This document shows positions 21,234 to 64,000 of a stretch of DNA of 64,000 nucleotides, one piece after another. The position numbers were made by a program, and so were the translations under genes. The notes under the pieces were generated by a model. That model had not been told where the DNA came from. It made no database searches and saw nothing but the letters and a program-made list of their open reading frames with translations. Within the stretch, counting starts at the first letter, position 1; each line of letters opens with the position of its first letter. The stretch spans positions 1,244 through 65,243 of the forward strand of contig CAMCOS010000010.1 in NCBI GenBank assembly GCA_945876565.1. The letters run 5' to 3'. This DNA comes from Lautropia mirabilis. GTDB taxonomy: Bacteria; Pseudomonadota; Gammaproteobacteria; Burkholderiales; Burkholderiaceae_B.

Positions 21234-21264
21234 TTTGTCTCCTCCCGAGCAATCATGCGTCGTA

Positions 21265-21582
21265 TTATTTGATTGCCGTCTTATCGGTACGTGATTCGCC
21301 CTTGTTGTCTTTCCAGGTCACCACAAGCTCGTCGCCCGCTTTAGCAGAGCCCTTAAGCTTGAAATTCAGGAACGGATCTTTCGAGACAGCCGGACCAAAC
21401 AGTGCGGTGAACACAACCTTGTCACCGATCTTGGCCTCTACTGTTTCAATGTACCAAGCTGGAACTAGCTGACCATCAGCGCCTTTGCGCTGACCCGTTT
21501 CCATGGCGTGACGCATCAAGACTTTGACGTCAACCGCACCATCTTGTTCGACTGTTGCTCGAATACGCATTGGACTTGCCAT
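21265..21582 (-). CDS. soxZ: Sulfur carrier subunit SoxZ
   Basis: VKVLMRHAMETGQRK, AVSKDPFLNF and WKDNKG. Confidence 0.96.
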   Translation of the reverse strand: MASPMRIRATVEQDGAVDVKVLMRHAMETGQRKGADGQLVPAWYIETVEAKIGDKVVFTALFGPAVSKDPFLNFKLKGSAKAGDELVVTWKDNKGESRTDKTAIK

Positions 21583-21651
21583 TTTGTGCCTCTCTTTATC
21601 TCGTGTATCGCTTAGCGCGAATTCAAAATCATGCCGGGATCACGTCAGCGC

Positions 21652-22107: not shown

Positions 22108-22165
22108 TTGTTAACTCCTCTTCAAATATAAAAACTGCTTTGTTAAACCGGCCAGCACGCAAAAA

Positions 22166-23242: not shown

Positions 23243-24605
23243 TGCTAACCTCTCCGTTTGTGCCAACCTTCCAAGACTGGATGGCGTTGTTGTGATAGAT
23301 CGAACGGGTGCCCCGAACTTCACGCAACTGGCGAATCGCCGGCTGCACATGTCCGGTGCTGTCAACCGCACGTGACTGCAGAATCGCTGGCTTACCGTCC
23401 CAAACCCAATCGATGCTAAAGCGTGTCAAACACTTATCCATGACCGGCGTCTCTAGGCGAGCCTGGCTCCAGTTTTTACCGCCATCAACCGAAACATCAA
23501 CGCGCTCGATCTTCCCGCGACCAGACCATGCCAAGCCACTGATTGCATAAAAACCCGTATTGAGCAACTGCTGACCACCAGACGGGGTGGTAATCACCGA
23601 CTTAACCTCCTGAATGGTGGTGTACTGCCGATGCAGGCCATCAGGCATCAAGTCGATGTAGTGCACTGCCTCGTCTTTTGCGGCGTAGGGCTGATCGCCC
23701 ACCTCAATACGACGCAGCCACTTGACCCAGCTCACGCCCTGCACGCCTGGCACGACCAGACGTAAGGGATAACCGTTTTCCGGGCGTAGCATCTCACCGT
23801 TCATGCCAAACGCAACCATGACATCATCTAAGGCGATGTCCATCGGGATGGTACGTGTCATGCCCGAGCCATCATTGCCCTCAGCCAAAATGTACTTGCC
23901 TTTCTTCAAGTCTGCGCCCGCCATCTCTAGCAACAGCGACAACGGCACGCCAGTGAACTCGCAACAGGACAGCATGCCGTGGGTGTATTGCACGGTGGGC
24001 ACGGCCACGTTGCCCCACTCCATGCCGGTGTTGGCACCGCACTCAATGAAGTAAAACTTCGATGTGCGTGGCAGCCGCAACAAGTCATCCATCGTGAAGA
24101 CGAGTTCTTTTTTAACCATGCCATTGATCATCAAGCGATGCTTGTTTGGATCGATGTCATACCAGCCTTGATGGTGACGCTCAAAATGCAGCCCGTTTGG
24201 GGTGATGATCCCAAAAAAGCCCTGCAACGGTGCAAACGCAACCGATGCCGCATCCACCGCGGTTAGCCCAGGCGACTGGCGGCGCTGCAGATACTTTTCA
24301 TAGATTGATGGCTCACCGTAGGGCTTTACTGCCACTGGCTGACCAAGCGTGGTTTGCCAAATCTGCTTCTCAACGATGGCAGGATCATCAGGGCCGGCTT
24401 GCGCCATGGCCTTGGCACCGACGCCCGTGGCCAAGCCTGCACCAACAGCACCTAAGAAGCTCTTGCGCAAAAACCCTCTGCGCTCTTCACTCATCCCATT
24501 GGCTGACACATCAGCCACAAACTCGGCGGGCAAAAAATTCTCGGGCGCTTTGCGCACCTGCCCGGGTATTTCAGAAAGCTTTGACTTGCTCAAGACAATC
24601 TCCAA
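23226..24605 (-). CDS. soxC: Sulfane-sulfur dehydrogenase molybdopterin subunit SoxC
   Basis: Tat motif RRGFL, ITPNGLHFERHH, FIECGAN, LRPENGYPLRLVVPG, GLAWSGRG and HNNAIQSW. Confidence 0.96.
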   Translation of the reverse strand: MEIVLSKSKLSEIPGQVRKAPENFLPAEFVADVSANGMSEERRGFLRKSFLGAVGAGLATGVGAKAMAQAGPDDPAIVEKQIWQTTLGQPVAVKPYGEPSIYEKYLQRRQSPGLTAVDAASVAFAPLQGFFGIITPNGLHFERHHQGWYDIDPNKHRLMINGMVKKELVFTMDDLLRLPRTSKFYFIECGANTGMEWGNVAVPTVQYTHGMLSCCEFTGVPLSLLLEMAGADLKKGKYILAEGNDGSGMTRTIPMDIALDDVMVAFGMNGEMLRPENGYPLRLVVPGVQGVSWVKWLRRIEVGDQPYAAKDEAVHYIDLMPDGLHRQYTTIQEVKSVITTPSGGQQLLNTGFYAISGLAWSGRGKIERVDVSVDGGKNWSQARLETPVMDKCLTRFSIDWVWDGKPAILQSRAVDSTGHVQPAIRQLREVRGTRSIYHNNAIQSWKVGTNGEVSNVQVG

Positions 24606-24799
24606 AAATCAACCCTAGCTGCGGCGTGGATTTGTTTATTATGGTTATTTGATAATTCGATAAAGTAATAAAAATCTGACGTTTAAGCAAGATCAATAGA
24701 AACCCTAATATCCCTCTTGCTTTCATTCGGGCAAGGTGTATTTCTTAAGGCAAATATCATCAAAAAATAAAGCAAGACTTACACAAAGAGGTGGCATTT

Positions 24800-25738
24800 A
24801 TGTCAGAAAAAAGTCACGATTCCCAATCAGCGCACGCTTCAGACGATCTGTATGCCGATGGCAAAGCCCTAGGCGGCCGATCGGACACCACGCGTCGTGC
24901 ATTCTTACGCAACACCACAGCAGCCAGTCTGGCAGGCGGCTTTGCTCTGGCTGCTCACCCGATTCAGGCGCAACAAGTGATCAGCACCGATTTCGACGGC
25001 TTAGATACGGGTGAGGCCAGCATTGAGGAAAACGGTATCGAACTTTATGCCTATTACGCCAAGCCCAAAGATGCCAAAGGTCCCTTGCCAACGATTATCG
25101 TCTGTAGCGAAATATTCGGCGTGCATGAGTACATCGCCGACACGGCGCGGCGATTCGCCAAACAGGGCTACCTCGCGATTGCGCCTGAATTCTTCACACG
25201 GGCTGGCGACCCAACCTCGCTGGGTACTTTCGCTGAGATTCTCAAAGAAATTGTAGGTAAAACGCCAGACGCCCAAGTCATGGATGACATTCGCGCAAGC
25301 CTGGCCTGGGCTGCCAAAAATGGCGGTGATTCAAACCGAGTTGGCATCACCGGGTTTTGCTGGGGTGGACGCATCACTTGGCTGGCATGCGCCAATATCC
25401 CGGAAATTAAAGCGGGCGTGGCTTGGTATGGACGCTTGGTCGGCGAGAAAAGCGCGAACTTCCCGGCTCACCCAGTTGACCTGGCCAAAGATTTAAATGC
25501 CCCGGTGCTTGGCCTTTACGGCGAGAAAGACGATGGCATTCCACTTGAGTCAGTAGACCAAATGAAGCAGGCACTTGCAGCCGCCACGGGCAACCCTGCG
25601 GCGCAGGGTTCGAGGTTCGAAATCTACCCAGATGCTCCCCACGCATTTCATGCCGATTACCGTGCAACGTATCGGCCCGGTCCAGCCAAAGACGGCTGGC
25701 AAAAGTGTCTGGCTTGGTTTGCCGAGCATGGCATTTAA
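24800..25738 (+). CDS. Dienelactone hydrolase family protein with a Tat signal
   Basis: TRRAFL Tat motif, EIFGVHEYI, nucleophile motif GFCWGG, and PDAPHAFHADYR. Confidence 0.9.
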   Translation: MSEKSHDSQSAHASDDLYADGKALGGRSDTTRRAFLRNTTAASLAGGFALAAHPIQAQQVISTDFDGLDTGEASIEENGIELYAYYAKPKDAKGPLPTIIVCSEIFGVHEYIADTARRFAKQGYLAIAPEFFTRAGDPTSLGTFAEILKEIVGKTPDAQVMDDIRASLAWAAKNGGDSNRVGITGFCWGGRITWLACANIPEIKAGVAWYGRLVGEKSANFPAHPVDLAKDLNAPVLGLYGEKDDGIPLESVDQMKQALAAATGNPAAQGSRFEIYPDAPHAFHADYRATYRPGPAKDGWQKCLAWFAEHGI

Positions 25739-25848
25739 ACAAGCCGCCAAGGCAAATCGACGCGTCATGAAAACACACGACCAGTAAGTCGCCATTAGAA
25801 AAAACAATTTGCTTCTGCAAATAAAAAAGTTTCGCAACACGACATTTC

Positions 25849-25862
25849 TTGATATAAATCAA
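25849..25862. promoter_or_regulatory. FNR/Anr-type box upstream of fccA
   Basis: TTGAT-ATAA-ATCAA is a perfect match to TTGAT-N4-ATCAA and ends 49 bp before the fccA ATG. Confidence 0.8.
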
Positions 25863-25910
25863 CCGTGAATCAGAAAAAGCCTATACCGGCAAAGTTAAAG
25901 GAGACTCACG

Positions 25911-26243
25911 ATGAAGGTAGCTCGAAAGGCTGTTGGACTTGCTTTGGCCAGCGCAGCTTTGGCAATTGGCACAAGCAGCATGGCGGTGGCCAGCGATGTC
26001 ACTGCAGAACGCGTTTATCACCTCAGCCTTGCAGCAACCTGCGCCAACTGCCACGGCACCAATGGGGTAAGCGTGGCTGGCGACAGAATGCCCAAGATCA
26101 ACGAGTTAACTCACGTTCAGTTAGCACAAATAATGCGCCAATACAAGTCTGGCGAAAAGACTGGCACGATCATGCCTCAGATTGCCAAAGGCTACACCGA
26201 GGAACAAATCGACATCATCGCCAAAGTACTTGGCAAAAACTAA
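25911..26243 (+). CDS. fccA: Flavocytochrome c sulfide dehydrogenase, monoheme cytochrome subunit
   Basis: Signal peptide, CANCHGTNG and TIMPQIAKGY; directly upstream of the flavoprotein gene. Confidence 0.88.
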   Translation: MKVARKAVGLALASAALAIGTSSMAVASDVTAERVYHLSLAATCANCHGTNGVSVAGDRMPKINELTHVQLAQIMRQYKSGEKTGTIMPQIAKGYTEEQIDIIAKVLGKN

Positions 26244-26267
26244 AAGACCATCCTCGAGGAGAACATT

Positions 26268-27545
26268 ATGAATCGTCGCTTGTTTCTCGGACAAAGTGCC
26301 GCACTGTTCGGCACGACAGCGGGTATTAACAAGCTTGCTCTTGCCAGCGCACCGAGCAAAGCTCAGGTCGTGATCGTTGGCGCTGGCTATGGTGGCGCCA
26401 CTGCTGCCAAATATCTTCGCATGCTGTCAAACAATTCGATCAGCGTCACGCTCATTGAGCCCAACGACAACTTCATTTCCTGCCCATTGTCAAACCTTGT
26501 GGTCGGTGGTGAAGAGAAGTTGGGTGCCCTGACCACCTCCTACAAAGGTCTGCCTGACAAATACGGCGTTACCATGGTCAAGGACACGGTCACTAAACTC
26601 GATACCAAAAAGAAAACAGTCACAACTGCCGGTGGCAGCACAATTGCCTACGACAAACTAATCCTCTCACCGGGTATCTCGATGAATATGGCCAGCGTTG
26701 AAGGTCTGGCGCAAGCCAACGCCGAGGGCATCACCCTGCAAGCCTGGAAAGCCGGTCCAGAGACAGTCGCGCTGCACAAGCAGATTGCCGACATGCCCGA
26801 TGGCGGTGTGGTCGCTTTGACAATCCCGCTGGCCCCCTATCGCTGCCCGCCAGGACCGTACGAGCGAACCTGCCAGATTGCGAATTACCTCAAGAACAAC
26901 AAGCCCAAGTCCAAGATCGTGGTGTTTGATGCCAACGAAGACGTGACATCGAAAGGCAAACTATTCAAACAGGTTTGGTCCAGTATGTATGACGGCTACA
27001 TCGACTACCGCCCGGCACACAACGTGGTCGGAGTCGATGGTAAGACACGCACCTTGAAGTTTGAGCTCTCCGACGATTTCAAGGCTGATGTGCTTAACGT
27101 CATACCGACCATGGGTGCTGGTTCGCTTGTGGTGGACTCGGGCTTAGCTAACATGAACAATCGCTGGGCTGAGGTCGCTTTTCTGAATTTTGAGTCGACC
27201 CAAGCCAAGGACGTGCACGTCATTGGTGACTCAATCCAGATTGCACCTGGCATGCCGAAATCCGGTCACATGGCCAACCAGCATGCCAAAGTGGCGGCTG
27301 CTGCGATTGTGGCTGAATTAAACAACTTCCCAGTTAACCCAAACCCTGTCGTCACGAATACCTGCTACAGCTTCATTAGTGCGCGAGAGGTCGTGCATGT
27401 GGCGAGCGTGCACCAATACGATGCTGCACAGAAAACGTTCTTACCCGTCAAGGGGGCCGGTGGTCTTTCGCCGGAGCCAAGCCAGCTCGAAGGCATTTAT
27501 GCCTGGGGTTGGGCCAAGAACATCTGGAACGATACCGTCGGCTAA
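26268..27545 (+). CDS. fccB: Flavocytochrome c sulfide dehydrogenase flavoprotein subunit (FccB/SoxF)
   Basis: Tat RRLFLG, GAGYGG, SCPLSN (FAD-linked Cys), YRCPPGPYER, MPKSGHMAN and NTCYS. Confidence 0.95.
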   Translation: MNRRLFLGQSAALFGTTAGINKLALASAPSKAQVVIVGAGYGGATAAKYLRMLSNNSISVTLIEPNDNFISCPLSNLVVGGEEKLGALTTSYKGLPDKYGVTMVKDTVTKLDTKKKTVTTAGGSTIAYDKLILSPGISMNMASVEGLAQANAEGITLQAWKAGPETVALHKQIADMPDGGVVALTIPLAPYRCPPGPYERTCQIANYLKNNKPKSKIVVFDANEDVTSKGKLFKQVWSSMYDGYIDYRPAHNVVGVDGKTRTLKFELSDDFKADVLNVIPTMGAGSLVVDSGLANMNNRWAEVAFLNFESTQAKDVHVIGDSIQIAPGMPKSGHMANQHAKVAAAAIVAELNNFPVNPNPVVTNTCYSFISAREVVHVASVHQYDAAQKTFLPVKGAGGLSPEPSQLEGIYAWGWAKNIWNDTVG

Positions 27546-52742: not shown

Positions 52743-54575
52743 TTGAGAAGCTTTGGCGCTGACAGCGAGAACAGTCAAGGCAAACCGCACCGTGCGGACT
52801 GGCAGGTCATCCGTGACCTGCTGCCCTACCTGCTTGCCTATAAGTGGCGTGTGGCGTTCGCGCTGGCGTGCATGGTACTGGCCAAGTTTGCCAACCTTGG
52901 CGTGCCAATTGTGCTCAAAGACATGGTTGACGCGCTGGACATCAACACCATGGCAGGCGCCTTGTTGGTGGTGCCGGTTGGATTGATCGTAGGCTACGGG
53001 CTGCTGAGGCTGTCGACTTCACTCTTTACTGAACTCAGAGAAGCCTTGTTTGCCCGGGTAACGCAGCATGCAGTGCGCCAGATTGCGCTCAACGTGTTTA
53101 ATCACCTTCACCGGTTATCGCTTAACTTTCACCTCTCGCGTCAAACGGGCGGTGTGAGCCGTGACATTGAGCGCGGCACCCGAGCAGTGCAGACGCTGGT
53201 GTCGTTTTCTCTTTACAGCATCTTTCCAACGTTTTTTGAGTTTGCGCTGGTATTGGGTTACCTGGCCATCTTCTACGACATCTGGTTTTCAGTGATCACC
53301 TTGGTTGCCCTGGTGCTCTACATTATTTTTACGGTCGTGGTGACAGAATGGCGCACCAATTTGCGTCGCACCATGAACCAACTCGATACGCGAGCGAACC
53401 AGAAAGCCATCGACTCGCTACTGAACTTTGAAACCGTCAAGTATTTTGGCAACGAAGACTATGAAACACGCCGCTATGATGAAAGCATGCAGCAATATCA
53501 AAAGGCTGCCATCGTTTCACAACAATCATTGGCCGCACTCAATCTGGGCCAGCAAATCATTATTTCGGTTGGACTGGTTCTGATCGTTTGGCGTGCTGCG
53601 GCAGGCGTGGCCAACGGCAGTTTGACGCTTGGCGACCTGGTGCTGGTCAACACCCTGATGATCCAACTCTACATGCCGTTGAATTTTCTCGGTGTGGTCT
53701 ATCGGGAACTGAAGCAATCCACCGCTGACATTGACCGCATGTTTGACTTACTGAATCAATCGCAAGAGATCACCGATCAACCCGGTGCACCTGCACTGGT
53801 GATTCGAGACCCTGTGCGCGGGCCCACCGTTGTCTTTGATAGGGTAAGTTTCAGTTACGACAAGCAACGACCGGTGCTCAAGGACATCAGCTTCACCATC
53901 GAAGCCGGCACAACCACCGCTGTCGTGGGTCGCAGCGGCGCTGGCAAAAGTACACTGTCGCGGCTGCTGTTTCGCTTTTACGAGGTCGACTCAGGCTGCA
54001 TCAGGTTTGACGGCCAGGACATTCGCCACGTGACCCAAACCAGTCTGCGGCAAGCCATTGGTATCGTGCCCCAAGATACCGTGCTGTTTAATGACACGAT
54101 TCGCTACAACATTCGCTATGGCAAGCCTCACGCCACCGACGAGGAGGTCCATGCCGCGGCTCAAGCCGCTCAACTGGCCAGCTTCATTGATCGCCTGCCG
54201 CAAGGTCATGACACCCCGGTGGGCGAGCGTGGCTTAAAACTGTCTGGCGGCGAAAAACAGCGCCTCGCGATTGCCCGCACCTTGCTGAAAAACCCAGCCT
54301 TGCTGGTGTTTGACGAAGCCACCTCAGCGCTGGACTCGCGCACCGAGCGCGCCTTGCAGGCCGAGTTATGGAAGCTTGCTCGCAATCGTTCAACACTGAT
54401 CATCGCGCATCGACTTTCAACCATCGTGCATGCCGACCAGATTTTGGTCATCGATCATGGCGAATTGGTTGAACAAGGCACGCATGAGTCACTGCTTGCA
54501 CAGCAAGGCACCTATGCCCAAATGTGGCAAATGCAGCAATCTCAGCCCGAAGAGGCGACGCTCGCATCGACCTAA
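52743..54575 (+). CDS. Atm1/ABCB7-like ABC exporter (fused permease-ATPase)
   Basis: LNFHLSRQTGG, DSLLNFETVKYF, PLNFLG, GRSGAGKST, LSGGEKQR and FDEATSALD. Confidence 0.93.
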   Translation: MRSFGADSENSQGKPHRADWQVIRDLLPYLLAYKWRVAFALACMVLAKFANLGVPIVLKDMVDALDINTMAGALLVVPVGLIVGYGLLRLSTSLFTELREALFARVTQHAVRQIALNVFNHLHRLSLNFHLSRQTGGVSRDIERGTRAVQTLVSFSLYSIFPTFFEFALVLGYLAIFYDIWFSVITLVALVLYIIFTVVVTEWRTNLRRTMNQLDTRANQKAIDSLLNFETVKYFGNEDYETRRYDESMQQYQKAAIVSQQSLAALNLGQQIIISVGLVLIVWRAAAGVANGSLTLGDLVLVNTLMIQLYMPLNFLGVVYRELKQSTADIDRMFDLLNQSQEITDQPGAPALVIRDPVRGPTVVFDRVSFSYDKQRPVLKDISFTIEAGTTTAVVGRSGAGKSTLSRLLFRFYEVDSGCIRFDGQDIRHVTQTSLRQAIGIVPQDTVLFNDTIRYNIRYGKPHATDEEVHAAAQAAQLASFIDRLPQGHDTPVGERGLKLSGGEKQRLAIARTLLKNPALLVFDEATSALDSRTERALQAELWKLARNRSTLIIAHRLSTIVHADQILVIDHGELVEQGTHESLLAQQGTYAQMWQMQQSQPEEATLAST

Positions 54576-54614
54576 TACCTCAGTCAGTCCATGGTGGTTT
54601 AGCGGCTAGCCACT

Positions 54615-54767
54615 TTGAAATCAAGCGATGAAATACGGTCGCTGTGCACTGACGGGCGACTCAAACATCATTTCGGTTGGCCTATCGTCCTCGCTTCTAT
54701 CGTCGTGTTCATCATTTTTGCCGTTTCGCCAAGTCCGCCCCATTCATGCCAGACCGACCAACACTGA
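54615..54767 (+). CDS. Possible 50-aa single-TM small protein or gene remnant
   Basis: TTG-start ORF with the hydrophobic stretch WPIVLASIVVFIIFAV; weak RBS; below the ORF-track length cut-off. Confidence 0.25.
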   Translation: MKSSDEIRSLCTDGRLKHHFGWPIVLASIVVFIIFAVSPSPPHSCQTDQH

Positions 54768-54946
54768 CAAAGGGCTTACGTATACTGCATTTGATTCTAG
54801 ACCACCGCGACCCGCGAGCGAAGAAACATGGGCTCGATCTATGCGTTAATGTCGAAGAGTGCGAAATATGAACAAAACAAAACGAGTTACTTGCTACTAT
54901 CAAACGCACTGACTTCAGATCAACCCACACATAGAGGAAAATTCTC

Positions 54947-55729
54947 ATGACACTCAAAGACAAAGTAGCCCTGGTTACTGGCGCAGCGAGCGGTATCGGC
55001 AAAGAATGCGCGATTCAAATGGCCAAAGCAGGTGCCCATATCGTCATCGCTGACATGAATATCGAAGGCGCAAAAGAGACTGCCAAAGAAATCGAGGCAC
55101 TCGGCGTCAAGGCCATAGCTGTCTCCATGGATGTCACTAGCGAAGACCAAGTCAATGCGGGCATCGACGAAGCCGTCAAAACCCTGGGCAGCATCGACGT
55201 GTTGGTCTCCAACGCCGGTATCCAGATCGTGAATCCGATCGAAGAGTATAAGTTTTCTGACTGGAAAAAAATGCTCGCCATCCACCTCGATGGCGCATTT
55301 CTGACCACCCAGGCTGCCATTAAGCACATGTACGCCAGTGGCCGTGGCGGCTCGATCATTTATATGGGCTCAGTACACTCGCACGAGGCCTCCAAGCTGA
55401 AGGCAGCTTATGTCACTGCCAAGCATGGCCTCTTGGGCTTGGCCCGCGTGGTTGCCAAAGAAGGTGCCGAGAAGAACGTTCGTGCCTACGTGGTTTGCCC
55501 AGGTTTCGTACGCACCCCGTTGGTGGACAAGCAAATCCCCGAGCAAGCCAAATCACTGGGCATCAGTGAAGATGAGGTCATCAAAAAGGTCATGCTTGGC
55601 CAAACAGTTGACGGCATCTTCACCACCACCGATGACGTCGCCTCTGTTGTAACCTTCCTAGCTGGGTTCCCATCGGCTGCCATGACCGGCCAGTCATTTA
55701 TCGTCAGCCATGGGTGGTTCATGCAATAA
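54947..55729 (+). CDS. bdhA: 3-hydroxybutyrate dehydrogenase (SDR)
   Basis: [38 protein letters not shown] and VSHGWFM. Confidence 0.93.
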
Positions 55730-55750
55730 GCACGACAAGGAAGGGGCAGC

Positions 55751-56830
55751 ATGGCAACAGTAACGCAGTGCTTCAGTGTGCGGTCTTTGAGGGCCGCCAT
55801 TGAAGAGGTGGTCAAGGGATTTGGCAGTGAACCGACCGAAGTTGCGCTGGTCACTGACAACTTGATTGAAGCCAACCTCACTGGCCATGATTCTCACGGC
55901 ATTGGCATGCTGCCACGCTATGCTCTTTCCCTGAAAGAAGAAGGTGGCCTAAAAGCCAACGCCCACATCAGCATACGAGTCGATCATGGCTCGATGCTTG
56001 GGCTAGACGGCCACGCCGGTTTTGGGCAAGTCATTGGTCATGAGGCCATGCAGCTTGGCATTGAGCGCACCCAGCAACACGGCAGTTGCATCATGTCACT
56101 AGGCAATGTGCACCACCTGTGTCGCATCGGTGCCTGGGCGGAAATGGCGACCGATGCCGGCCTAATTTCAATCCACTTTGTGAATGTCATGTCCAAGCCC
56201 GTGGTAGCACCTTGGGACGGCGCTGATGGTCGATTTGGCACCAACCCGTTCTGCGTCGGCATACCTGTAGAGGGACGCACGCCAGTGATCCTGGATTTTG
56301 CGACCAGCGTGATTGCGCAGGGCAAGACCCGCGTGGCGCACAACAAAGGCGAGCAACTCAAGCCTGGTCTGATGATCGACCATGAAGGCAAACCCACCAC
56401 TGATCCAGCCTATGGCGTCAAGCCCCCTTATGGCGCCATCAAAACATTTGGTGAGCACAAAGGTTTTGGTATGGCACTGGTTTGTGAGTTGCTAGGTGGC
56501 GCTTTGTCAGCTGGCCAGACCTTACACGACAGGCCTATACGTAGCCGAGTGTTTAACGGCATGCTAACGATTCTGATCGATCCGACCAAACTGGCGCAAG
56601 ACAATCTATTCGTACAAGAGTCACTGACGTTTCTTGACTGGGTCAAGCAATCACCACCGATCGAAGGCACGGACGGCGTGAAGATTGCAGGTGAACCCGA
56701 GCAGCACACCAGAGCCGAACGCCTAAAGTCAGGAATAACTGTCGATGAGAACACTTGGCGCGATATTTTACATGCCGCTGACATGCTCGGTGTCGAGCCA
56801 GACCGCATCGATGCCCTGGCCCGGGCGTGA
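55751..56830 (+). CDS. Ldh_2 family (malate/lactate/ureidoglycolate-type) dehydrogenase, YbiC/HcxB-like
   Basis: ANLTGHDSHGIGM, FGQVIG, HHLCRIGAWAE, FGTNPFC, LDFATS and FGEHKG. Confidence 0.9.
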   Translation: MATVTQCFSVRSLRAAIEEVVKGFGSEPTEVALVTDNLIEANLTGHDSHGIGMLPRYALSLKEEGGLKANAHISIRVDHGSMLGLDGHAGFGQVIGHEAMQLGIERTQQHGSCIMSLGNVHHLCRIGAWAEMATDAGLISIHFVNVMSKPVVAPWDGADGRFGTNPFCVGIPVEGRTPVILDFATSVIAQGKTRVAHNKGEQLKPGLMIDHEGKPTTDPAYGVKPPYGAIKTFGEHKGFGMALVCELLGGALSAGQTLHDRPIRSRVFNGMLTILIDPTKLAQDNLFVQESLTFLDWVKQSPPIEGTDGVKIAGEPEQHTRAERLKSGITVDENTWRDILHAADMLGVEPDRIDALARA

Positions 56831-56891
56831 ATACGTATCCCAGCTGACCGTTCAGGCCATGCTTGTGCATGGCCTGAACCACAACAGGGAT

Positions 56892-57872
56892 TTACTGAAT
56901 AGCCTGAATGGCACGAATGTTGTCAGCGCCAAACTCCTTGGCATACTCCGCATAGGCTGGCGTGATGGCTAGACGGAAACTGTCGCCATCGACCTGCTCC
57001 ACTACCTGCATACCATCTTGACGCAAAAGTGCAATACCGTTGGCCTCGTCATCATTGACTTTTTTGCGCTGGGCGGCAGAAGCAGCCTTAGCAGCACTCA
57101 AAAATACCTGTTTATCCGCATCAGACAGTTGATTCCAGACGCTTGGCGACAAAATCAGAACCGCAGGTGAATAGACGTGGTTTGTCAGTGACAGGTGTTT
57201 CTGCACCTGTGAGAACTTGGATGCCAGAATCACTGGAATGGGGTTTTCCTGTCCATCCACGGTGCCTTGCTGCAATGCCGTGAACAACTCGGGGAACGCC
57301 ATTGGCGTGGGCAAAATGCCGAATGTCTTGTAACCATCCATGTGCACCTTGTTCTCCATGGTGCGCATCTTCAGGCCACTGGCATCGCGAGCTTGCACGA
57401 TCGGCCGCACATTATTGGTCATATGGCGGAAACCGTTCTCTGTCCAAGCCAAGCCAACCAACCCCTTTTCCTGCATTTTTTGCAGCAGGTCCTGCCCCAC
57501 ATCCCCATCCATCACCTTGCGAGCGTGGTCGTAATCACGAAACAGGAAAGGAATGTCAACAATCTTGACCTCAGGAACAAAGTTGCCCAGTGGACCAGTC
57601 GAGGTATTCACAATATCTAGCGTGCCCAACTGCACGGACTCAATCATTTCGCGCTCGCCGCCGAGCGCGCTACTTGGAAACTGCTGGCAGGCGTAGCGGC
57701 CTTGCGTGCCCTTTCGAATCTCCTCACAAAACACCGTCGACCCTACGCCGTAATGCGAGGTCGGTGACGTGGCATAACCAATCTTCAAAACATTCTGTGC
57801 CTGCGCAGTCACACCCACCGCTGACAAAGCGGCCAAGAGTGCAGCCAGGCGCATTAATCGAGAAGCTTTCAT
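56892..57872 (-). CDS. TRAP transporter substrate-binding protein DctP (no dctQM nearby)
   Basis: Signal peptide, LGGEREMIE, PFLFRD, ENGFRH, GLKMRTM, LQQGTVDGQENP and LSLTNH. Start at ATG 57872. Confidence 0.93.
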   Translation of the reverse strand: MKASRLMRLAALLAALSAVGVTAQAQNVLKIGYATSPTSHYGVGSTVFCEEIRKGTQGRYACQQFPSSALGGEREMIESVQLGTLDIVNTSTGPLGNFVPEVKIVDIPFLFRDYDHARKVMDGDVGQDLLQKMQEKGLVGLAWTENGFRHMTNNVRPIVQARDASGLKMRTMENKVHMDGYKTFGILPTPMAFPELFTALQQGTVDGQENPIPVILASKFSQVQKHLSLTNHVYSPAVLILSPSVWNQLSDADKQVFLSAAKAASAAQRKKVNDDEANGIALLRQDGMQVVEQVDGDSFRLAITPAYAEYAKEFGADNIRAIQAIQ

Positions 57873-57992
57873 GGTCCCTCCCTGGATATCGGATTCAAGT
57901 CGGCTAACGTTAGCGCAAAAAAGTCCCCCAGGTTCCACAAACCCACAGACAAACACATAGGATTTCCCCTTAGCTACCACCCCCGAGTTTCC

Positions 57993-58931
57993 TCAAACCA
58001 ATCCGGATTTTTTCAGGGCGATCTGCGCCTTGGTCTCGTCCGTTTGCGCTCGCAATTGCTGCAATTGTGCAGCCGACGTCCTGTCCGGATTACAGTAATC
58101 AAGCTTCCAGTGCGGATCATCAGACCAGCGCTGCAGTGACTGCACTGTTGTACGGCCAGCGCGTGCCCAAGCCAGGACATCCAAGGCTAGTCTCAATGTA
58201 TCTCGCTGTGAATCCATGTCATGTGGCTTGCCCGCCGCATTGCCAAGCGGGAAATCACTGAACAAAAACCGCGGCACACCACAGTGTTCAACCACATCCT
58301 TGGCACAACCCATGATCACGGTTGATATCCCGTTGGCTTCCAGATACCTGGCCACTAGGCTCAAGGTCTGATGACAGACCGGACAATTGGCCACCAAGAC
58401 CATGGCATCCACGCCGTCTTCACGGCAGCGCTTCAAAATCTCAGGACAATCGACAGTCAAGGTATGACGCTGGCTGCGATTGGTCGGCGCACCATGAAAC
58501 CGAGGTGCCAGCGCACCGATCATGCCTTGATCGGCAAACGTCCTTAGTAACGGCAATGGAAACCAACTACCTGAATCGGTCATGTCAGTGTGCTGCCGGT
58601 CAATAGCCACATGCGCAATGCGAACGTCGTGATCCAAGGTGGCATCGCCGGAATAGACCTCGTAGAATTTGGCGCGCGCATTGTACTCGGCGCCCGGGCC
58701 CTGATCGCCTTTGTCCGGATCAAAAGGGGCAGCCGTGGTGATAAGCCCAACCACTGCCTCTGGCAAAGGCTTGCCTAGTGGGGCAAATGGCACATCGATG
58801 TAATGCGCCCAACGGTAAGGGTTGTCATAACCAAGCGCCAAGTACCATTGACGAGTTCGTTGCATGTAGGCAACCGGCACATCGAACTCATCAGCGAACT
58901 GAAGTTCAGATACGCCATTGAACTTGCTCAT
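57993..58931 (-). CDS. Glycine/sarcosine/D-proline reductase selenoprotein-B (GrdB/PrdB) family homologue, Cys form
   Basis: PLGKPLPEAVVGLITTAA, DGVDAMVLVANCPVCHQTLSLVARYLEANGISTV and VPRFLFSDFPLGN. Both Cys of CPVC are TGT codons (58385-58374). Confidence 0.8.
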   Translation of the reverse strand: MSKFNGVSELQFADEFDVPVAYMQRTRQWYLALGYDNPYRWAHYIDVPFAPLGKPLPEAVVGLITTAAPFDPDKGDQGPGAEYNARAKFYEVYSGDATLDHDVRIAHVAIDRQHTDMTDSGSWFPLPLLRTFADQGMIGALAPRFHGAPTNRSQRHTLTVDCPEILKRCREDGVDAMVLVANCPVCHQTLSLVARYLEANGISTVIMGCAKDVVEHCGVPRFLFSDFPLGNAAGKPHDMDSQRDTLRLALDVLAWARAGRTTVQSLQRWSDDPHWKLDYCNPDRTSAAQLQQLRAQTDETKAQIALKKSGLV

Positions 58932-59491
58932 GCCATCACAGGCGCACTGTAGCCCGACACAAACGACTTCGCCATGCCGCCTGACTCAGCAAACACATGA
59001 CGGTGAATCTTGCCGATGTTACCGCCATAGGCATGAATACTGATGGAGACGCGATCATCAAAGGCATTGCTAACCCGATGAACATCACCGATGGATGGTG
59101 CTGTAAACCCAATACTACCTGCCTCGAGGCGCTCTAGCTCACCAGTGGGTGTGGGTGGCGAATCGCCATCAATGTTATACGCCTGAGAAATCTCCGCACC
59201 ACGCAACATGCCGATCACACCCCAGACCGTGTGGTCGTGAATCGGCGTGGATTGACCCGGCCCCCAGACAAAACTCACCACCGAGAAACGGTCGTTGGGA
59301 TCGGCATATAGGCAATACTGCTGATAAAACTGCGGATGCGGCACCGCCATGCTTTGCGGCAACCAGTCATCTTTGGCCACCAACTCGCGCATGGCATCAC
59401 CAAGCTCAGGCCAAAAATCCGGCCGCGCCTCGCCACCACCCTCAACCAGCCGATCAAGACTGGCAATAAAACGATCTAATGCTTCTGGCAT
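58928..59491 (-). CDS. mdo: Gln-type thiol dioxygenase (3-mercaptopropionate dioxygenase / CDO family)
   Basis: DDWLP, YQQY, FSVVSFVWGPGQSTPIHDH (His-x-His), DVHRVSN (third His) and SISIHAYG (Ser-His-Tyr triad). Confidence 0.88.
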   Translation of the reverse strand: MPEALDRFIASLDRLVEGGGEARPDFWPELGDAMRELVAKDDWLPQSMAVPHPQFYQQYCLYADPNDRFSVVSFVWGPGQSTPIHDHTVWGVIGMLRGAEISQAYNIDGDSPPTPTGELERLEAGSIGFTAPSIGDVHRVSNAFDDRVSISIHAYGGNIGKIHRHVFAESGGMAKSFVSGYSAPVMA

Positions 59492-59581
59492 CGACCCGCC
59501 CCCCTTACTCGTTTAACCGAATGTCCAACCATGGTTGGTTCTCCCCCGCTTGTCTTGGCTCTCACCTGCCTATCGTTTACC

Positions 59582-60313
59582 TTAATCCCCGGCGCGGTAC
59601 TTCGCAATCCGTTCGTTCAAGCCGGGACTCACCACCGACCTCACCAGATCAGCCAAATCAGCGTCATCGGTGTCCTCGCTTAAGACCTGATAAAGCAGAC
59701 GCCTAGCCTCAGGCGACAATGTGATCGCAGCCTCGTGCTGTTGTTGCACCACTGCCTGCCAGCGTCCCGTATCGACTAACTCGGACACCAGACCTGAGGC
59801 CAAGGCATCTGGCGCGGACAACGTCTGTGCCACCTGCTGTATCTGGCGGGCTCGCTCCCGCCCCACGAGCTGTGCAAGCCGCCTCGTACCCAGCACCAAA
59901 CCGAACTTTAAGCCCGGCATCCGAAACGTCGCATCAGCCGCAGCCACCCGATGCTTGCAGACAGCCATGAGATCCACCCCTGCACCAAAATTCTTGCCAT
60001 GCACCAGTGCCACGGTCAATGCTGGCAGGGCATGCAAGCGCTGCAGCATCTGTTCAATGCGCACAAAGCGCCACAACAGATCTCCTTCACTTGACTGCTC
60101 AATGTCACCAAAGTCAAAACCTGCACAGAAGTTTTTACCCTCACCACGCAGCACCAGTAGGTCGGCCTGCTCAACGCGGGCTTGATCAATCACTTCAATA
60201 AGTGACTCCACCAATTCAGCGTCAAGTGCGTTACGTTTGTCTGGCCGATTCAACGTCAAGGTCCAAACCTTTGATGCTTTGTCGACTTTGTCGACGATTA
60301 AGCTTGTGCTCAT
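59582..60313 (-). CDS. Crotonase (enoyl-CoA hydratase/isomerase) superfamily protein, non-canonical active site
   Basis: LTLNRPDKRNAL, FCAGFD, FGAGVDL and FRMPGLKFG; ATGA overlap with the CoA transferase gene. Confidence 0.9.
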   Translation of the reverse strand: MSTSLIVDKVDKASKVWTLTLNRPDKRNALDAELVESLIEVIDQARVEQADLLVLRGEGKNFCAGFDFGDIEQSSEGDLLWRFVRIEQMLQRLHALPALTVALVHGKNFGAGVDLMAVCKHRVAAADATFRMPGLKFGLVLGTRRLAQLVGRERARQIQQVAQTLSAPDALASGLVSELVDTGRWQAVVQQQHEAAITLSPEARRLLYQVLSEDTDDADLADLVRSVVSPGLNERIAKYRAGD

Positions 60314-61464
60314 CGCCACTGCTCGAAGACCTCATCGTTATGCGCCCCAAGGGCAGGCGGAGCCCGCCTGATCGGCATAGCCTGACCATCAAATTGAACG
60401 GGCGAGGCAAATGTCTGTGTGCGTACCCCGTTGGGCAAGGTAATGTCTTGCACCCACTGCATGTGCTTGACCTGCTCATCGGCCAATACCTGCGAGTAGG
60501 TATTAATCGGTGCACATGGCACACCGGCACTGCGAAACCGCTCAAGCCATGTATCGGTGTCAGATTCTGCAAAGATGGCTTGCAACATGTCACGCAACAC
60601 AACTTGATGCTGCGCTCGAAGCGTGGGGCTCAAAAACCTGGGGTCTTCTGTCCAGCCGGGCTGGCCAACCACCTTGCAGACTGACGCCCACAAGGCATTA
60701 TTGCCCGCGGCCATGCCAAAGTAACCGTCACGGCACTTGAATGCCTGATAAGGCGCATTACGAGGATGCGCCGAACCTAACTTGACCGGATCTTTACCGG
60801 TACCAAAATACTCAGACGTCTGCAAGGCCGCAATGCCTAATGTGGCACCCAGCATCGGCACATCGATGTGGGTACCTTGGCCGGATGCTTGCGCCAACCG
60901 TAACGCACACACCACTGAAAAAGCGGCATAAAGACCCGCAGAAAAATCGGCCAACGGCACACCGCACTTTACCGGATCCCCACCCGCTTGCCCAGTCACA
61001 CTCATGATGCCACTCATGGCTTGCACCGTCAGATCAAAGCCGCCTTCAGCCGCACGCGGGCCGGTCTGTCCATAGGCCGAGATCGAGGCCATGACCAATG
61101 TCGGGTTCAGGGACTTCAGTGTGCTGTAGTCTATGCCAAGCCGACCCATGACGCCTGGCCGATTGTTTTCGATCAGCACATCAGCCGTTTTGACCAGCAA
61201 CTTGAACCGTGCAAGGTCATCCGGATTTTTAAGATCAAGCGCAACCGAACGCTTGTTACGATTAAGCGCTGCGAAGTTTTCGCTATAGCCATCAGAGATC
61301 GGTGGCCAGCTGCGCATAGTGTCGCCCCCACTCGGATTCTCTACCTTCACGAGATCTGCACCCATGTCAGCCAGCAGCATCCCGCAAAATGGCCCAGCCG
61401 CAACGTTACAAAGTTCAATGACTCTCACGCCGTCAAGCGGTAATGGATGGGATAGAGGCTGCAA
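60310..61464 (-). CDS. Family III CoA transferase (CaiB/BaiF)
   Basis: LDGVRV, AGPFCGMLLADMGAD, NRNKRS, ENNRPG, ISAYGQTGP and GVPLADFSAG (catalytic Asp). TTG start behind GAGGAG. Confidence 0.95.
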   Translation of the reverse strand: MQPLSHPLPLDGVRVIELCNVAAGPFCGMLLADMGADLVKVENPSGGDTMRSWPPISDGYSENFAALNRNKRSVALDLKNPDDLARFKLLVKTADVLIENNRPGVMGRLGIDYSTLKSLNPTLVMASISAYGQTGPRAAEGGFDLTVQAMSGIMSVTGQAGGDPVKCGVPLADFSAGLYAAFSVVCALRLAQASGQGTHIDVPMLGATLGIAALQTSEYFGTGKDPVKLGSAHPRNAPYQAFKCRDGYFGMAAGNNALWASVCKVVGQPGWTEDPRFLSPTLRAQHQVVLRDMLQAIFAESDTDTWLERFRSAGVPCAPINTYSQVLADEQVKHMQWVQDITLPNGVRTQTFASPVQFDGQAMPIRRAPPALGAHNDEVFEQWR

Positions 61465-61567
61465 AGTTTTTCTCCTCAAAATCTCATGAAACACACAGGC
61501 AAGCCAATATTATCCTAGTGGCCGGCCTAATAGAACCACCGGATTTAAGTTGTCGTTCGCCACACCC

Positions 61568-62470
61568 ATGACTGCGCAATCACTGTCGATCGTTGACGTC
61601 GCACTGCTTTCATTTGTCAGTCTGGTCTGGGGAATTACCTTTCCGGTCATGAAGCTTGGTCTGCAGAGCTACCCACCGATTACGTTTCGTGCGCTCTCTA
61701 TCATCATCGGTATCGCAGCCGTAGGCCTGTTTTTGCTCATGCGCGGTCAGTCGCTCAAGATTGCACCTGCTGAACTGAAAAAACTCTTTGCCATTAGCCA
61801 GATCAACCTGACCGCTTGGCAAATGGGTTTGCTGTATGGTGTCATTCTGATGGGGGCTAGCCGCGCAGCGATTCTCGGCTACACCATGCCAGTCTGGGCA
61901 TTTGTGGCGAGCGTGTTGATGTACAAAGCACCTGTAAACGAACGTGGCCCGATTGGCGTCACCCTTGCCATGCTGGCAGTCGGTGCGCTGACCTTAAATG
62001 ACTTTTCACAGTTTCTTGCTGCGCCAACTGGTTTGGTTATCCTGGTCGCCGCTGCCATGTGCTGGGGCGCAGGAACGACCATGATTCGCCATACACCCCT
62101 ATCAATCACCAACGAGTCCATGGCATTTTGGGGATTGATTTGGACCTTGCCTGCGTACGTCATTCTGACCTACTGGTTCGAGAGCCACTTGTGGCGCTGG
62201 CCCAACTTTGCTGAGACCCGGACTATGTTGTACGGCGGTCTGGTGACTTTCTCGTTTTGTTACGTGTTCTGGTACCGGCTCTCCAGAAAACTGCCGCCCG
62301 TGGTCAGTAACCTATCGGTCATGCTGGCACCCGTGATCGGCGTTATTAGCAGCGCAATCAGCCTAGTTGAGCACGTCTGAGCCTCGGGCTGGCTTGCACT
62401 TGCATTGATCATCGCGGCCATGGCCGTGGTTCTGCTACCAGCACAAGTCTTTAAGCTCAGACAACGCTAA
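61568..62470 (+). pseudogene. EamA/DMT transporter with a premature TGA before the last TM helix
   Basis: WGITFP...YTMPVW...PVIGVISSAISLVEHV*ASGWLALALIIAAMAVVLLP...*. TGA at 62378-62380; the frame continues to TAA at 62468-62470. Confidence 0.75.
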
Positions 62471-62487
62471 ACCGGAGTGTCTGGGCC

Positions 62488-62775
62488 TTAAGCGCCATCA
62501 ACAATCATCATGTTGAAGTCCGCAGCACCTAAACGCTCTTTCTTGCCGGCTTGATACTCCACCGAGTTGTAAAAATCCCGCGCACGATCGCGCGATTCGA
62601 ATTCGAGCACCACCACGCGTGACCATGGAAATCCACCCTCCATGATTTCTGTGGCGCCGCCACGCACCAGATACTTGCCACCGTACTTGCTGCAAGCTGC
62701 ACTGGCGTGGGCCATGTAGTTTTTGTATTTATCATCATCGGTCACATTGACCATGGCAATCACATACGCATTCAC
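62488..62775 (-). CDS. DUF1330 family protein
   Basis: YGGKYLVRGG, EG...RVVVLEFES, FYNSVEYQ. Confidence 0.92.
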   Translation of the reverse strand: MNAYVIAMVNVTDDDKYKNYMAHASAACSKYGGKYLVRGGATEIMEGGFPWSRVVVLEFESRDRARDFYNSVEYQAGKKERLGAADFNMMIVDGA

Positions 62776-62837
62776 TTTTTCTCTCCCAGATTTTCAGACA
62801 ACTCTCTAACCAATCGCTTCTTTTCTGACCAATCAAT

Positions 62838-63698
62838 TCATTTGCTGCGCGTGACCAGCCAAACCCCCATGACCGTCACAATCGTGCCAAGCGCCACCCA
62901 CAGCGACAAGCGTTCATCAAACAACATCCAGGCCATGACAGACACCGTCGGTGGCGTCAAATAGATGAGGCTACTGACGCGAGTGGCTGCGCCTTGACGC
63001 AGCAACACGATCCACAGACTCATGGCACCAATTGACAAGAACAACACGCTCCAGAGCAGCGCACCGATTAGCTCTGCAGTCCACTGTACAGTCATGGGTT
63101 CAAAAGCCATCATCAAGCAAGCTGTCACCACCGCGCTGGCAGCATACTGAATCATGGTGCCAGCCCGCAGGTCAAACATGGGACAAAACCTTTTCTGATA
63201 GATGGTGCCAGCGGTAAACGAAACCAGGGCAATAAAACACAGCACCACGCCCCAAACTGATACGCCTGCAAACTCGAGCTTATCAGCCAGCACAATCGCG
63301 ACACCGCTAAAGCCAAAAATCAAACCTGCCCACTGACGTGCGCTGACCTTCTCGGCCAAACGTGCCGCCAAGAATGCCGTTAAAACTGGCTGCAAGCCCA
63401 CGATCAGTGCGGTTGGTCCCGCTGGCATGCCAAGTTTGATGGCCGTCCATACGCCGCCCAAATAGCCAACGTGCATCAACAGCCCAGCAACCGCAATGTG
63501 TAACGCGCTCCTGGCATTGGGCCACGTTGGCCGCCACCACAAACTTAAGGGCACCATAACGGCAAGAACGCCCACAAAACGCATGGTCAGAAATGTCATG
63601 GGGTCGGTGTACGGCATGCCGTACTTAGCCACAATAAACCCCGTACTCCACACCAAAACGAACAGCGGACCTGACCACGCAATTGATAAAGTTGGCAC
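62838..63698 (-). CDS. EamA/DMT family transporter
   Basis: WSTGFIVAK, YLGGV, IVGLQPVLT, GTIYQKR and SLIYLTPP. Confidence 0.93.
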   Translation of the reverse strand: MPTLSIAWSGPLFVLVWSTGFIVAKYGMPYTDPMTFLTMRFVGVLAVMVPLSLWWRPTWPNARSALHIAVAGLLMHVGYLGGVWTAIKLGMPAGPTALIVGLQPVLTAFLAARLAEKVSARQWAGLIFGFSGVAIVLADKLEFAGVSVWGVVLCFIALVSFTAGTIYQKRFCPMFDLRAGTMIQYAASAVVTACLMMAFEPMTVQWTAELIGALLWSVLFLSIGAMSLWIVLLRQGAATRVSSLIYLTPPTVSVMAWMLFDERLSLWVALGTIVTVMGVWLVTRSK

Positions 63699-63712
63699 CA
63701 GCGAAACCTTGT

Positions 63713-63779
63713 ATTGAGAATAGATCTCAATCTTATTGAGTTATTGTTTTTCTATCCGTAATTGAAATCGATTCTCACT
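63713..63779. promoter_or_regulatory. Two Fur-box-like sites
   Basis: ATTGAGAATAGATCTCAAT (63713-63731, 7-5-7 inverted repeat) and ATTGAAATCGATTCTCACT (63761-63779) resemble AATGAGAATCATTCTCATT. Confidence 0.5.
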
Positions 63780-63780
63780 C

Positions 63781-63796
63781 ATTGCACAAGTGCAAT
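63781..63796. promoter_or_regulatory. Perfect 7-2-7 inverted repeat (possible operator)
   Basis: ATTGCAC-AA-GTGCAAT. Confidence 0.45.
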
Positions 63797-63942
63797 TTTT
63801 TTTGATGAATGTCAAGAAATTATGGTTGGATACACAGTCGATTCATGACTTTCTTAACTAAGTTTCCGTACAATGATGCTTGAAAGTTAGTCTTGAATTT
63901 TTGTGGCCAGTTTAGTTTGTCGCTTTACATGAGGAAAGCAAA

Positions 63943-64000
63943 ATGAAATCTACCCGTCGTCAGTTTATGGCTGTGTCTGCTGTTAGCGTTGCTACTTTGG
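63943..64000 (+). CDS. Tat-exported protein, N-terminus only (possibly HiPIP)
   Basis: GAGGA RBS, then MKSTRRQFMAVSAVSVATL (twin-arginine RRxF); runs off the window end. Confidence 0.6.
   Translation, partial: MKSTRRQFMAVSAVSVATL

Follow-up and report, generated by a model that had tools for sequence, protein, structure and literature searches.

A 64,000-nt stretch of DNA from a genome assembly assigned to Lautropia mirabilis (GenBank GCA_945876565.1, contig CAMCOS010000010.1, positions 1,244 to 65,243), here termed the window, carries between positions 56892 and 61494 five co-oriented open reading frames (ORFs) on the minus strand. They code for a CoA-transferase (act), a crotonase-fold protein (ech), a thiol dioxygenase (mdo), a protein resembling the GrdB and PrdB reductases (grdB-like) and a solute-binding protein of the tripartite ATP-independent periplasmic (TRAP) type (dctP). 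An earlier note, made from the sequence alone, had proposed these genes as a single operon for the catabolism of organosulfur compounds, and all five ORFs that it described are indeed present:

60310..61494, minus strand: act, family III (CaiB/BaiF) CoA-transferase, SUGCT-like (Pfam CoA_transf_3, E 7e-123)
59582..60313, minus strand: ech, crotonase-fold protein of an Mdo-linked subfamily (ECH_1, E 1e-31)
58928..59491, minus strand: mdo, Gln-type thiol dioxygenase, CDO_I-type cupin (Pfam, E 2.4e-7)
57993..58931, minus strand: grdB-like, GrdB/PrdB-like reductase in its Cys form, 312 aa, cytoplasmic
58374..58385, minus strand: codons of the C183-P-V-C186 redox motif of the GrdB-like protein, within an invariant N-C-P-x-C-H-Q block
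56892..57872, minus strand: dctP, orphan TRAP solute-binding protein of the erythronate/pantoate-binding subfamily (Pfam, E 7e-89)

Direct reading of the junctions confirmed the two ATGA overlaps described before, in which the stop of act meets the start of ech (60313-60310) and the stop of mdo that of grdB-like (58931-58928). The remaining junctions are gaps of 90 nt (ech-mdo) and 120 nt (grdB-dctP), each with a purine-rich ribosome-binding site ahead of the ATG and neither with a terminator-like site. Translation of dctP almost certainly begins at the ATG at 57872, the first codon of the signal peptide MKASRLMRL, and not at the GTG at 57980. At the other end, only 55 bp separate the start of act (61494, GTG) from that of a divergent EamA gene (61550). 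No known RNA element was found by an Rfam scan of positions 54000-64000.

The presence of a thiol dioxygenase in the cluster was borne out by structure matches and active-site motifs, on which the cupin is a bona fide orthologue of the Gln-type 3-mercaptopropionate dioxygenase (3MDO, or Mdo), with a predicted preference for 3-mercaptopropionate (3MP). In contrast to its weak Pfam CDO_I score, sequence search of the PDB returned 4qma (E 4e-63), 3uss/4tlf, which are the Pseudomonas aeruginosa 3MDO (E 2e-58), and 6xb9 (E 1e-51), with mercaptosuccinate dioxygenase at just 8.5e-9 and cysteine dioxygenases at about 1e-4. The residues HDH and GDVHRV match those of the three-histidine iron site (HxH...H) of 3uss/4tlf and 4qma, the Ser-His-Tyr triad lies in SISIHAY, aligned with SISIHVY of both structures, and FYQQYCLY aligns with RYQQYLLH of the P. 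aeruginosa enzyme. The glutamine of this YQQY motif, which replaces the substrate-binding arginine of cysteine dioxygenases, is an established diagnostic feature of 3MDO.

The act product spans the whole of PF02515 (positions 1-366 of 366, E 7e-123) and carries the motif GFDLTVQAMSG, containing the catalytic Asp of the family. Its best NCBIfam model, succinate-glutarate CoA-transferase, scored 321 bits, below the cutoff of 750, and its best PDB match was 9br6, a succinate-hydroxymethylglutarate CoA-transferase (E 2e-77). Many genomes have an Act orthologue (58-84% identity) encoded beside mdo and ech.

The ech product belongs to the crotonase superfamily, with an ECH_1 fold and the oxyanion-hole motifs FCAGFD and FGAG. 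Neither of the two catalytic glutamates of hydratases (Glu144/Glu164 in the rat enzyme) occurs in the window crotonase or in any of the 18 aligned members of its subfamily: an Asp stands at the first position and a Gly at the second (GAGVD and MPG in the window), and GAG(V/A)D and (M/F)PG were found in 18/18 members. All NCBIfam hydratase equivalogs remained below cutoff. The nearest structure, matched over its full length, is 3isa (E 4e-72), a structural-genomics entry titled only "putative enoyl-CoA hydratase/isomerase" and presumably from Bordetella parapertussis. Since the active-site signature is conserved across the subfamily, the gene does not appear degenerate, and what had been called an odd crotonase is, judged by this conservation, a conserved Mdo-linked family and not a decayed gene. 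Neither the link with mdo nor the Asp/Gly signature of this subfamily is described in the literature searched.

The only catabolic route worked out for 3MP requires the desulfinase AcdA, an ACAD-like enzyme that acts on the sulfinate after its activation with CoA. AcdA was searched with the curated NCBIfam model NF042439 (3-sulfinopropanoyl-CoA desulfinase, cutoff 600 bits). No acyl-CoA-dehydrogenase-like gene lies within the window, which agrees with the earlier observation of a missing desulfinase, and canonical AcdA was not found in the genome to which the window belongs (no match at E<=1e-90). The best acyl-CoA dehydrogenases (ACADs) tested, from this genome and from related clusters, reached only about 155-205 bits. 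A sample of 121 genomes of the window's family was also searched, with the Mdo, crotonase and GrdB-like proteins as further queries and distances taken from the coordinates, and the AcdA model exceeded its cutoff in just three of these genomes. In two of the three (G068 and G078) AcdA lies beside a second mdo copy or about 4 kb from it, an arrangement that reproduces the order of CoA-transferase (MIM_c31380), Acd (c31390) and Mdo (c31400) in Advenella (PMC5373536). The order in the window is CoA-transferase, crotonase, Mdo, with the crotonase occupying the slot of the Advenella acd. The part of desulfinase stand-in, which had been assigned to the GrdB-like protein, would fall instead to the crotonase as the parallel, being the widely conserved partner encoded, in this lineage, between act and mdo.

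Within the family sample, 58 genomes encode Mdo and 56 the crotonase, with an overlap of 49, a co-occurrence with a Fisher p of 5e-17, the significance of which is overstated because related genomes are not independent. Of these 49 genomes, 33 have the two genes no more than 10 kb apart, and in 17 the distance is 300 bp or less; another seven carry the crotonase without mdo. The link of Mdo with a family III CoA-transferase and an unusual crotonase, recognised before from this one locus, is therefore real and widespread in the family: most of the Mdo-bearing genomes have no AcdA, and Mdo is kept linked to the crotonase and the family III CoA-transferase.

Neighbourhood maps were drawn from ORFs called by a self-trained codon model, with the high-GC loci L055, L057, L060, L062 and L063 excluded from the tallies, and those of 20 mdo-centred loci showed two recurrent layouts. 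In the first, present in many genera, act, mdo and ech form, in this order, an IclR-regulated operon, behind which an ADP-forming acyl-CoA synthetase is often encoded; in the second, the operon continues from act and ech to a family I CoA-transferase (A/B) and an AMP ligase, and mdo lies a few kb off. In the family genomes with the second layout at loci L019-L025, TctC receptors and a FAD/NAD(P)-binding protein were also seen nearby. By similarity, the Act of the window is nearer to the second layout (67-73%) than to the first (58-64%), and so is its crotonase (50-58% against 37-46%).

Since mdo lies kilobases away in the layout nearer to the window's pair, the substrate of act and ech may be a non-sulfur acid. 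According to this explanation, the two genes would catabolise a (di)carboxylic or hydroxy acid, Mdo would detoxify a toxic thiol, and the GrdB-like protein would be a general thiol-disulfide oxidoreductase placed there by chance. It would agree with the SUGCT-like character of Act, with the act-ech-CoA-transferase A/B-AMP ligase clusters lacking an adjacent mdo, with the seven genomes having the crotonase alone and with the heterogeneous contexts of the GrdB-like genes reported below. However, mdo and ech are directly adjacent in 17 genomes, from many genera, and in many genomes mdo is the central gene of an act-mdo-ech order; as for the GrdB-like protein, its 4-nt overlap with mdo is conserved, and a distant relative forms an independent cluster with another cupin (both described below). 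On balance, we regard this explanation as rather unlikely.

The position of the crotonase in the pathway bears on a further explanation, in which this enzyme acts before Mdo. Thioether acids, such as 3,3'-thiodipropionate (TDP), would be CoA-activated by Act and beta-eliminated by the Asp crotonase to acryloyl-CoA and 3MP; Mdo would then oxidise 3MP, with the sulfinate exported, for example by the adjacent EamA transporters, or handled elsewhere. Just such a beta-elimination of TDP-CoA by Ech-type proteins is invoked in the "Variant I" proposal for Variovorax paradoxus TBEA6 (PMC6370202). A single acid/base residue together with an intact oxyanion hole would suit thiolate elimination through an E1cB (carbanion-type) mechanism, the absence of AcdA would be accounted for, and EamA genes flank the cluster. 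On the other hand, no thioether-specific gene was identifiable, the TBEA6 proteins Ech-20 and Ech-30 may not be orthologues of the window crotonase, and the fate of 3-sulfinopropionate is left unexplained by this scheme, which we consider possible but, on the whole, doubtful.

The GrdB-like protein scored 82.8 bits with the NCBIfam model for PrdB (TIGR04483, cutoff 300; aligned residues 49-254) and 26-36 bits with the GrdB, GrdF and GrdH models (cutoffs 600-800). No Pfam match at 1e-3 and, by sequence, no PDB relative were found, and its AlphaFold model (predicted local distance difference test score 75.6, predicted template-modelling (TM) score 0.80) has no meaningful fold neighbour in the PDB (best E 0.07, TM <0.3). 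The family is very numerous and of low diversity: all but 2 of 8000 scored candidates match, the top 120 are at least 67% identical, and after clustering at 50% only 141 representatives reach E <= 1e-30. Mean column identity in the alignment is 71%, and the N-C-P-x-C-H-Q block and C183-P-V-C186 are invariant. At the exact position of C183, two homologues, one from an Acetobacteraceae metagenome-assembled genome (MAG, locus L049) and one from a Dehalococcoidia MAG (locus L053), have an in-frame TGA (VAN*PVCHQT, with the asterisk marking the TGA):

L049, 2530-3558: GrdB-like homologue, one in-frame TGA in place of the first Cys codon of CPVC
L053, 6833-7828: GrdB-like homologue, one in-frame TGA in place of the first Cys codon of CPVC

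Further copies with one TGA occur in G504, G438, G508, G324, G434, G357 and G316, several of them in Burkholderiales. These TGA-containing genes likely encode selenoproteins and are split in two by ORF and gene callers. Because the TGA stands at the first Cys in L049 and L053, the protein of the window is the Cys form of a (U/C)-P-V-C, or (U/C)xxC, family of redox enzymes. The family evidently corresponds to the "PrdB" UxxC selenoproteins recorded from metagenomes of the aerobic ocean (Sargasso Sea; PMC1088965). No pyruvoyl partner of the PrdA/GrdE type and no partner of the GrdA or GrdCD type was seen among the called neighbours in the window and in annotated related loci, a statement that concerns these neighbours only as no genome-wide search was made.

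GrdB-like genes were found in 15 of the 121 family genomes and in 16 of the 401 genomes of a second sample, drawn from the order, and outside the window's genus they never lie next to mdo in either sample. The 4-nt overlap of mdo and grdB-like also occurs in L001 (Orrella daihaiensis) and L005. Genomes with a GrdB-like gene are enriched in mdo (13/15, compared with 58/121; p 0.0013, and p 0.014 without the window's genus). Close orthologues (57-73% identical) occur in unrelated contexts, among TctC, EamA, TauE, oxidoreductase and housekeeping genes; EamA transporter genes adjoin GrdB-like genes in L031, L056 and L061. A conserved pair of GrdB-like and binding protein was considered and rejected, as adjacency to TctC or DctP is sporadic and the DctP of the window is of acid-sugar ancestry (see below).

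At a greater distance, a GrdB-like protein with 43% identity is clustered in L039 (1-9345) and L040, from genomes G030 and G100, with four other genes, which code for a CDO-like cupin (25-27% identical to Mdo), a multi-rhodanese protein of about 550 aa, an 80-aa glutaredoxin-like ORF with a CxxC motif and a family III CoA-transferase. In the Dehalococcoidia MAG (L053), a CoA-transferase gene is followed by the GrdB-like gene in its selenocysteine (Sec) form and then by the same glutaredoxin-like ORF. CoA_transf_3 genes are adjacent, or nearly so, to the GrdB-like gene in L039, L040, L053, L068, L072 and L073, and two proteins, P0242 with 514 aa and P0244 with 805 aa, appear to be fusions in which the GrdB-like part is preceded by an AMP-binding (acyl-CoA synthetase) domain, unless they are gene-call artefacts. 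A CoA-activating enzyme is thus the most consistent association of the family across clades. From these partners, the GrdB-like proteins probably act reductively on CoA-activated acids and are recycled by a donor of the glutaredoxin or thioredoxin type; C-S or S-S cleavage is a possible activity, and a role in releasing or regenerating the thiol substrate of Mdo is plausible.

These associations might be combined into a bolder scheme, in which the PrdB-like (U/C)-P-V-C proteins would be CoA-thioester-dependent reductive C-S (or S-S) lyases. The acid would first be CoA-activated, either by a family III CoA-transferase or by a fused AMP-ligase; the Sec or Cys would then attack and expel the thiol, here the substrate of Mdo, and glutaredoxin would reset the enzyme, with the Asp/Gly crotonase serving as a non-flavin replacement of the 3-sulfinopropionyl-CoA desulfinase. 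Taken as a whole, we hold this scheme to be improbable.

The DctP protein is about 82% identical to PDB entry 4pdd (Bpro_0088; E 4e-164), is also close to 4pdh, 4nq8 and 4p9k/4pak, and lies above the cutoffs of its family models (TIGR00787, 259 bits against 175; NF037995, 248 bits against 50). The ligand held by 4pdd we take to be D-erythronate. This group of TRAP binding proteins has been crystallised with pantoate or erythronate, mostly co-purified (PMC11668362). Orthologues with 81-83% identity head complete dctPQM operons in Hydrogenophaga and Caldimonas, in clusters with a GntR regulator, a dehydrogenase, a DUF1537-type kinase (SBD_N/NBD_C), a class II aldolase, an AP_endonuc_2 isomerase and an epimerase-like gene, a gene set that, by its content, marks a four-carbon acid-sugar pathway. 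No dctQ or dctM lies beside dctP in the window. Contig C9 of the window's genome carries together, and with no dctP, orthologues of the epimerase-like gene (63% identity), dctQ (63%) and dctM (80%) of these clusters:

C9, 60065-63872, outside the window: region of the orphan TRAP membrane genes
C9, 61704-62261: dctQ
C9, 62277-63872: dctM, with a long Pro-rich C-terminal tail

The DUF1537-type kinase and the class II aldolase of this genome are on contig C15, and the copy in the window is its sole orthologous dctP. The DctP protein is thus best read as a displaced part of an erythronate/threonate-type TRAP uptake system with its dctQM on another contig; it is probably functionally separate from the sulfur cluster, a bystander, and unlikely as the importer of an organosulfur substrate. 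Its inclusion in the organosulfur pathway, as put forward in the earlier note, finds no support in this orthology to 4pdd and to the acid-sugar clusters. The same holds for the precedent of a TRAP importer in Advenella, to which that note had appealed. The Advenella system listed in a TRAP preprint is, we assume, one for gluconate, and the import of 3,3'-dithiodipropionate (DTDP) in this organism has been called "hitherto unknown" (PMC5373536).

The complete order act-ech-mdo-grdB-dctP is present in the window, L042, Orrella daihaiensis and G113. Locus L029 has act-ech-grdB, with mdo and dctP missing, L043 has act and, further on, mdo-grdB, with dctP missing, and L077 has act-ech-mdo-dctP without grdB in an otherwise identical cluster, which rules out that grdB is always kept in the Orrella block. 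Loci L005-L007 have the same five genes plus an ACAD and a MaoC gene. These two, an ACAD-family gene and a RipB/Ich-like MaoC hydratase gene, directly follow dctP (L005, 10161-11900; also L006 and L007) in what is a metagenomic relative, and the ACAD of the L005 type has APV in place of the canonical YEG with its catalytic glutamate. This ACAD was considered as a hidden desulfinase and rejected, with 200 bits against the cutoff of 600 and no desulfinase among the PDB hits listed.

A dedicated five-gene organosulfur operon, with DctP importing the substrate and the GrdB-like protein cleaving C-S or S-S bonds in place of the desulfinase or of a disulfide reductase, would explain the co-oriented and tightly packed genes, the two ATGA overlaps, the terminator-free gaps, the absence of AcdA and the recurrence of the same genes in O. 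daihaiensis, an uncultured Orrella MAG and G113. However, as these five-gene loci share whole-block synteny, they are not independent evidence, and within the block grdB (L077), dctP (L029, L043) and mdo (L029) are missing independently of one another. Moreover, grdB-like never stands by mdo outside the genus in the 121 and 401 genomes, and DctP is an erythronate-type orthologue with dctQM elsewhere. The five genes are not co-conserved as the single operon first proposed: the unit is a mosaic, and a dedicated operon appears to us quite improbable.

Downstream of the cluster, and convergent with it, lie two dehydrogenase genes; upstream there is a trio of genes, and the genes for sulfite and sulfide oxidation (20424-27545), which the earlier note had correctly placed in the same window, are about 30 kb away:

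54947-55729, plus strand: short-chain dehydrogenase/reductase (SDR) of 3-hydroxybutyrate-dehydrogenase type (NCBIfam PRK13394, 431 bits, above cutoff)
55751-56830, plus strand: Ldh_2-family 2-hydroxyacid dehydrogenase (NCBIfam PRK10098, 487 bits, above cutoff)
61550-63698: EamA - DUF1330 - EamA trio, kept upstream of the cluster in the window, L001, L042, L043 and L077
20424-21233, minus strand: SoxA (Pfam SoxA-TsdA_cyt-c)
22166-23371, minus strand: cytochrome c (Pfam Cytochrom_C)
23226-24605, minus strand: SorA-type Mo sulfite dehydrogenase (Pfam Oxidored_molyb and Mo-co_dimer)
26268-27545, plus strand: flavoprotein of flavocytochrome c sulfide dehydrogenase (FCSD; Pfam FCSD_central and FCSD-flav_bind)

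Synteny of the Ldh_2 gene extends to every mapped locus of the Orrella lineage, and that of the SDR gene to all except L029; DctP may be associated with these two dehydrogenases, which possibly represent its hydroxy-acid side. Some relatives of the Orrella lineage show only one EamA gene upstream of the cluster. Since SoxA, cytochrome c, SorA-type and FCSD genes are encoded at 20424-27545, the organism can, on its predicted gene content, oxidise inorganic sulfur. Any sulfite or sulfide arising from the pathway could accordingly be oxidised, in line with the suggestion of the earlier note.

With somewhat more confidence than doubt, we read the locus as a mosaic made of an act-ech-mdo core, which would be a variant of the 3MP pathway, a GrdB-like insertion and a displaced DctP. 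Mdo would form the sulfinate from 3MP or from a closely related omega-thiol acid, and the SUGCT-like family III CoA-transferase would make the CoA ester, presumably from succinyl-CoA. The crotonase, in view of its slot and conservation the leading candidate for the sulfur removal that would otherwise be lacking, would supply the reaction that makes the pathway productive, for example by processing the sulfinyl-CoA ester; alternatively, its place might be ahead of Mdo, where it would split 3MP off a thioether-CoA ester by beta-elimination. Sulfite set free would be handed on to the SorA-type and Sox enzymes, whose genes lie in this window. The GrdB-like protein would be a lineage-specific insertion, translationally coupled to mdo, that most plausibly releases or regenerates the thiol of Mdo through the reductive cleavage of S-S or alpha-C-S bonds, with a reductant of the glutaredoxin or thioredoxin type recycling it.

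Several observations weigh against this mosaic reading. The main weakness of the sulfinyl-CoA option is the chemistry: desulfination by a crotonase is not obvious, because with the sulfinate on the beta-carbon neither an enolate-assisted loss of SO2 nor a beta-elimination with a good leaving group is evident. No regulator gene adjoins the cluster in the window, and clusters elsewhere are under IclR, LysR or XRE control. To these are to be added the family genomes having the crotonase and no mdo, the closeness of the act/ech pair to the second layout, the unrelated contexts of the close GrdB-like orthologues and the L077 cluster, intact without grdB. Finally, because dctP is co-oriented and no terminator precedes it, it may be co-transcribed with the cluster despite its separate ancestry.

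Some significance attaches to the locus beyond its own genome. 3MP is a common sediment thiol and a product of the breakdown of dimethylsulfoniopropionate (DMSP) and of thioethers; about half of the sampled family genomes have Mdo and almost none has AcdA, so that the crotonase is a testable candidate for a second 3MP route, with a crystal-structure relative (3isa) already available. The locus also ties a member of the PrdB-like (U/C)xxC family, recorded as an abundant ocean selenoprotein, to a defined enzyme, Mdo, and this link, together with the CoA-transferase, AMP-ligase and glutaredoxin partners, would narrow the search for the substrate of the GrdB-like protein to CoA-activated sulfur acids. 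It further illustrates that what looks like a tidy "operon" of five genes can be of mosaic make-up, with dctP probably a member of a different pathway.

Among known systems, the nearest are the DTDP/3MP cluster of Advenella mimigardefordensis DPN7 and the act/acdA/mdo genes of V. paradoxus TBEA6, which belong to the same broad bacterial group as the window, likewise have sulfite-oxidising capacity in the genome and, as in the window, have a Gln-type Mdo clustered with a family III CoA-transferase. Unlike them, the window has no AcdA in cluster or genome and carries instead the Asp/Gly crotonase between act and mdo; it also has no adjoining LysR, XRE or IclR regulator, an extra GrdB-like gene, and DctP instead of TctC receptors. 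The core thus appears to be the known 3MP pathway in a new variation, with an uncharacterised crotonase in place of AcdA. A crotonase-fold enzyme that frees a sulfur leaving group from a CoA thioester is known in DmdD, the methylthioacryloyl-CoA hydratase of DMSP demethylation, although DmdD retains the hydratase-type glutamates and acts on an enoyl-CoA. The analogy with a putative C-S-cleaving crotonase in the window is a functional one.

As for DctP, the acid-sugar (DUF1537 kinase) clusters of the 4pdd type have orthologous dctQ, dctM, epimerase-like, kinase and class II aldolase genes in the genome of the window; in contrast to these clusters, the dctP of the window is parted from dctQM, on different contigs, and adjoins mdo and grdB-like. 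The GrdB-like protein shares with the Stickland PrdB and GrdB and with the environmental PrdB selenoproteins a homologous domain with the redox motif at the same place, its Cys183 aligning with Sec. It differs from them in being a Cys form, far below the PrdB cutoff and present in aerobic Proteobacteria, and its family is linked to CoA-transferases, AMP-ligases, glutaredoxin and thiol dioxygenases and not to amino-acid reductase genes. It is a further Cys-form member of a known family, to whose function this locus adds a contextual clue.

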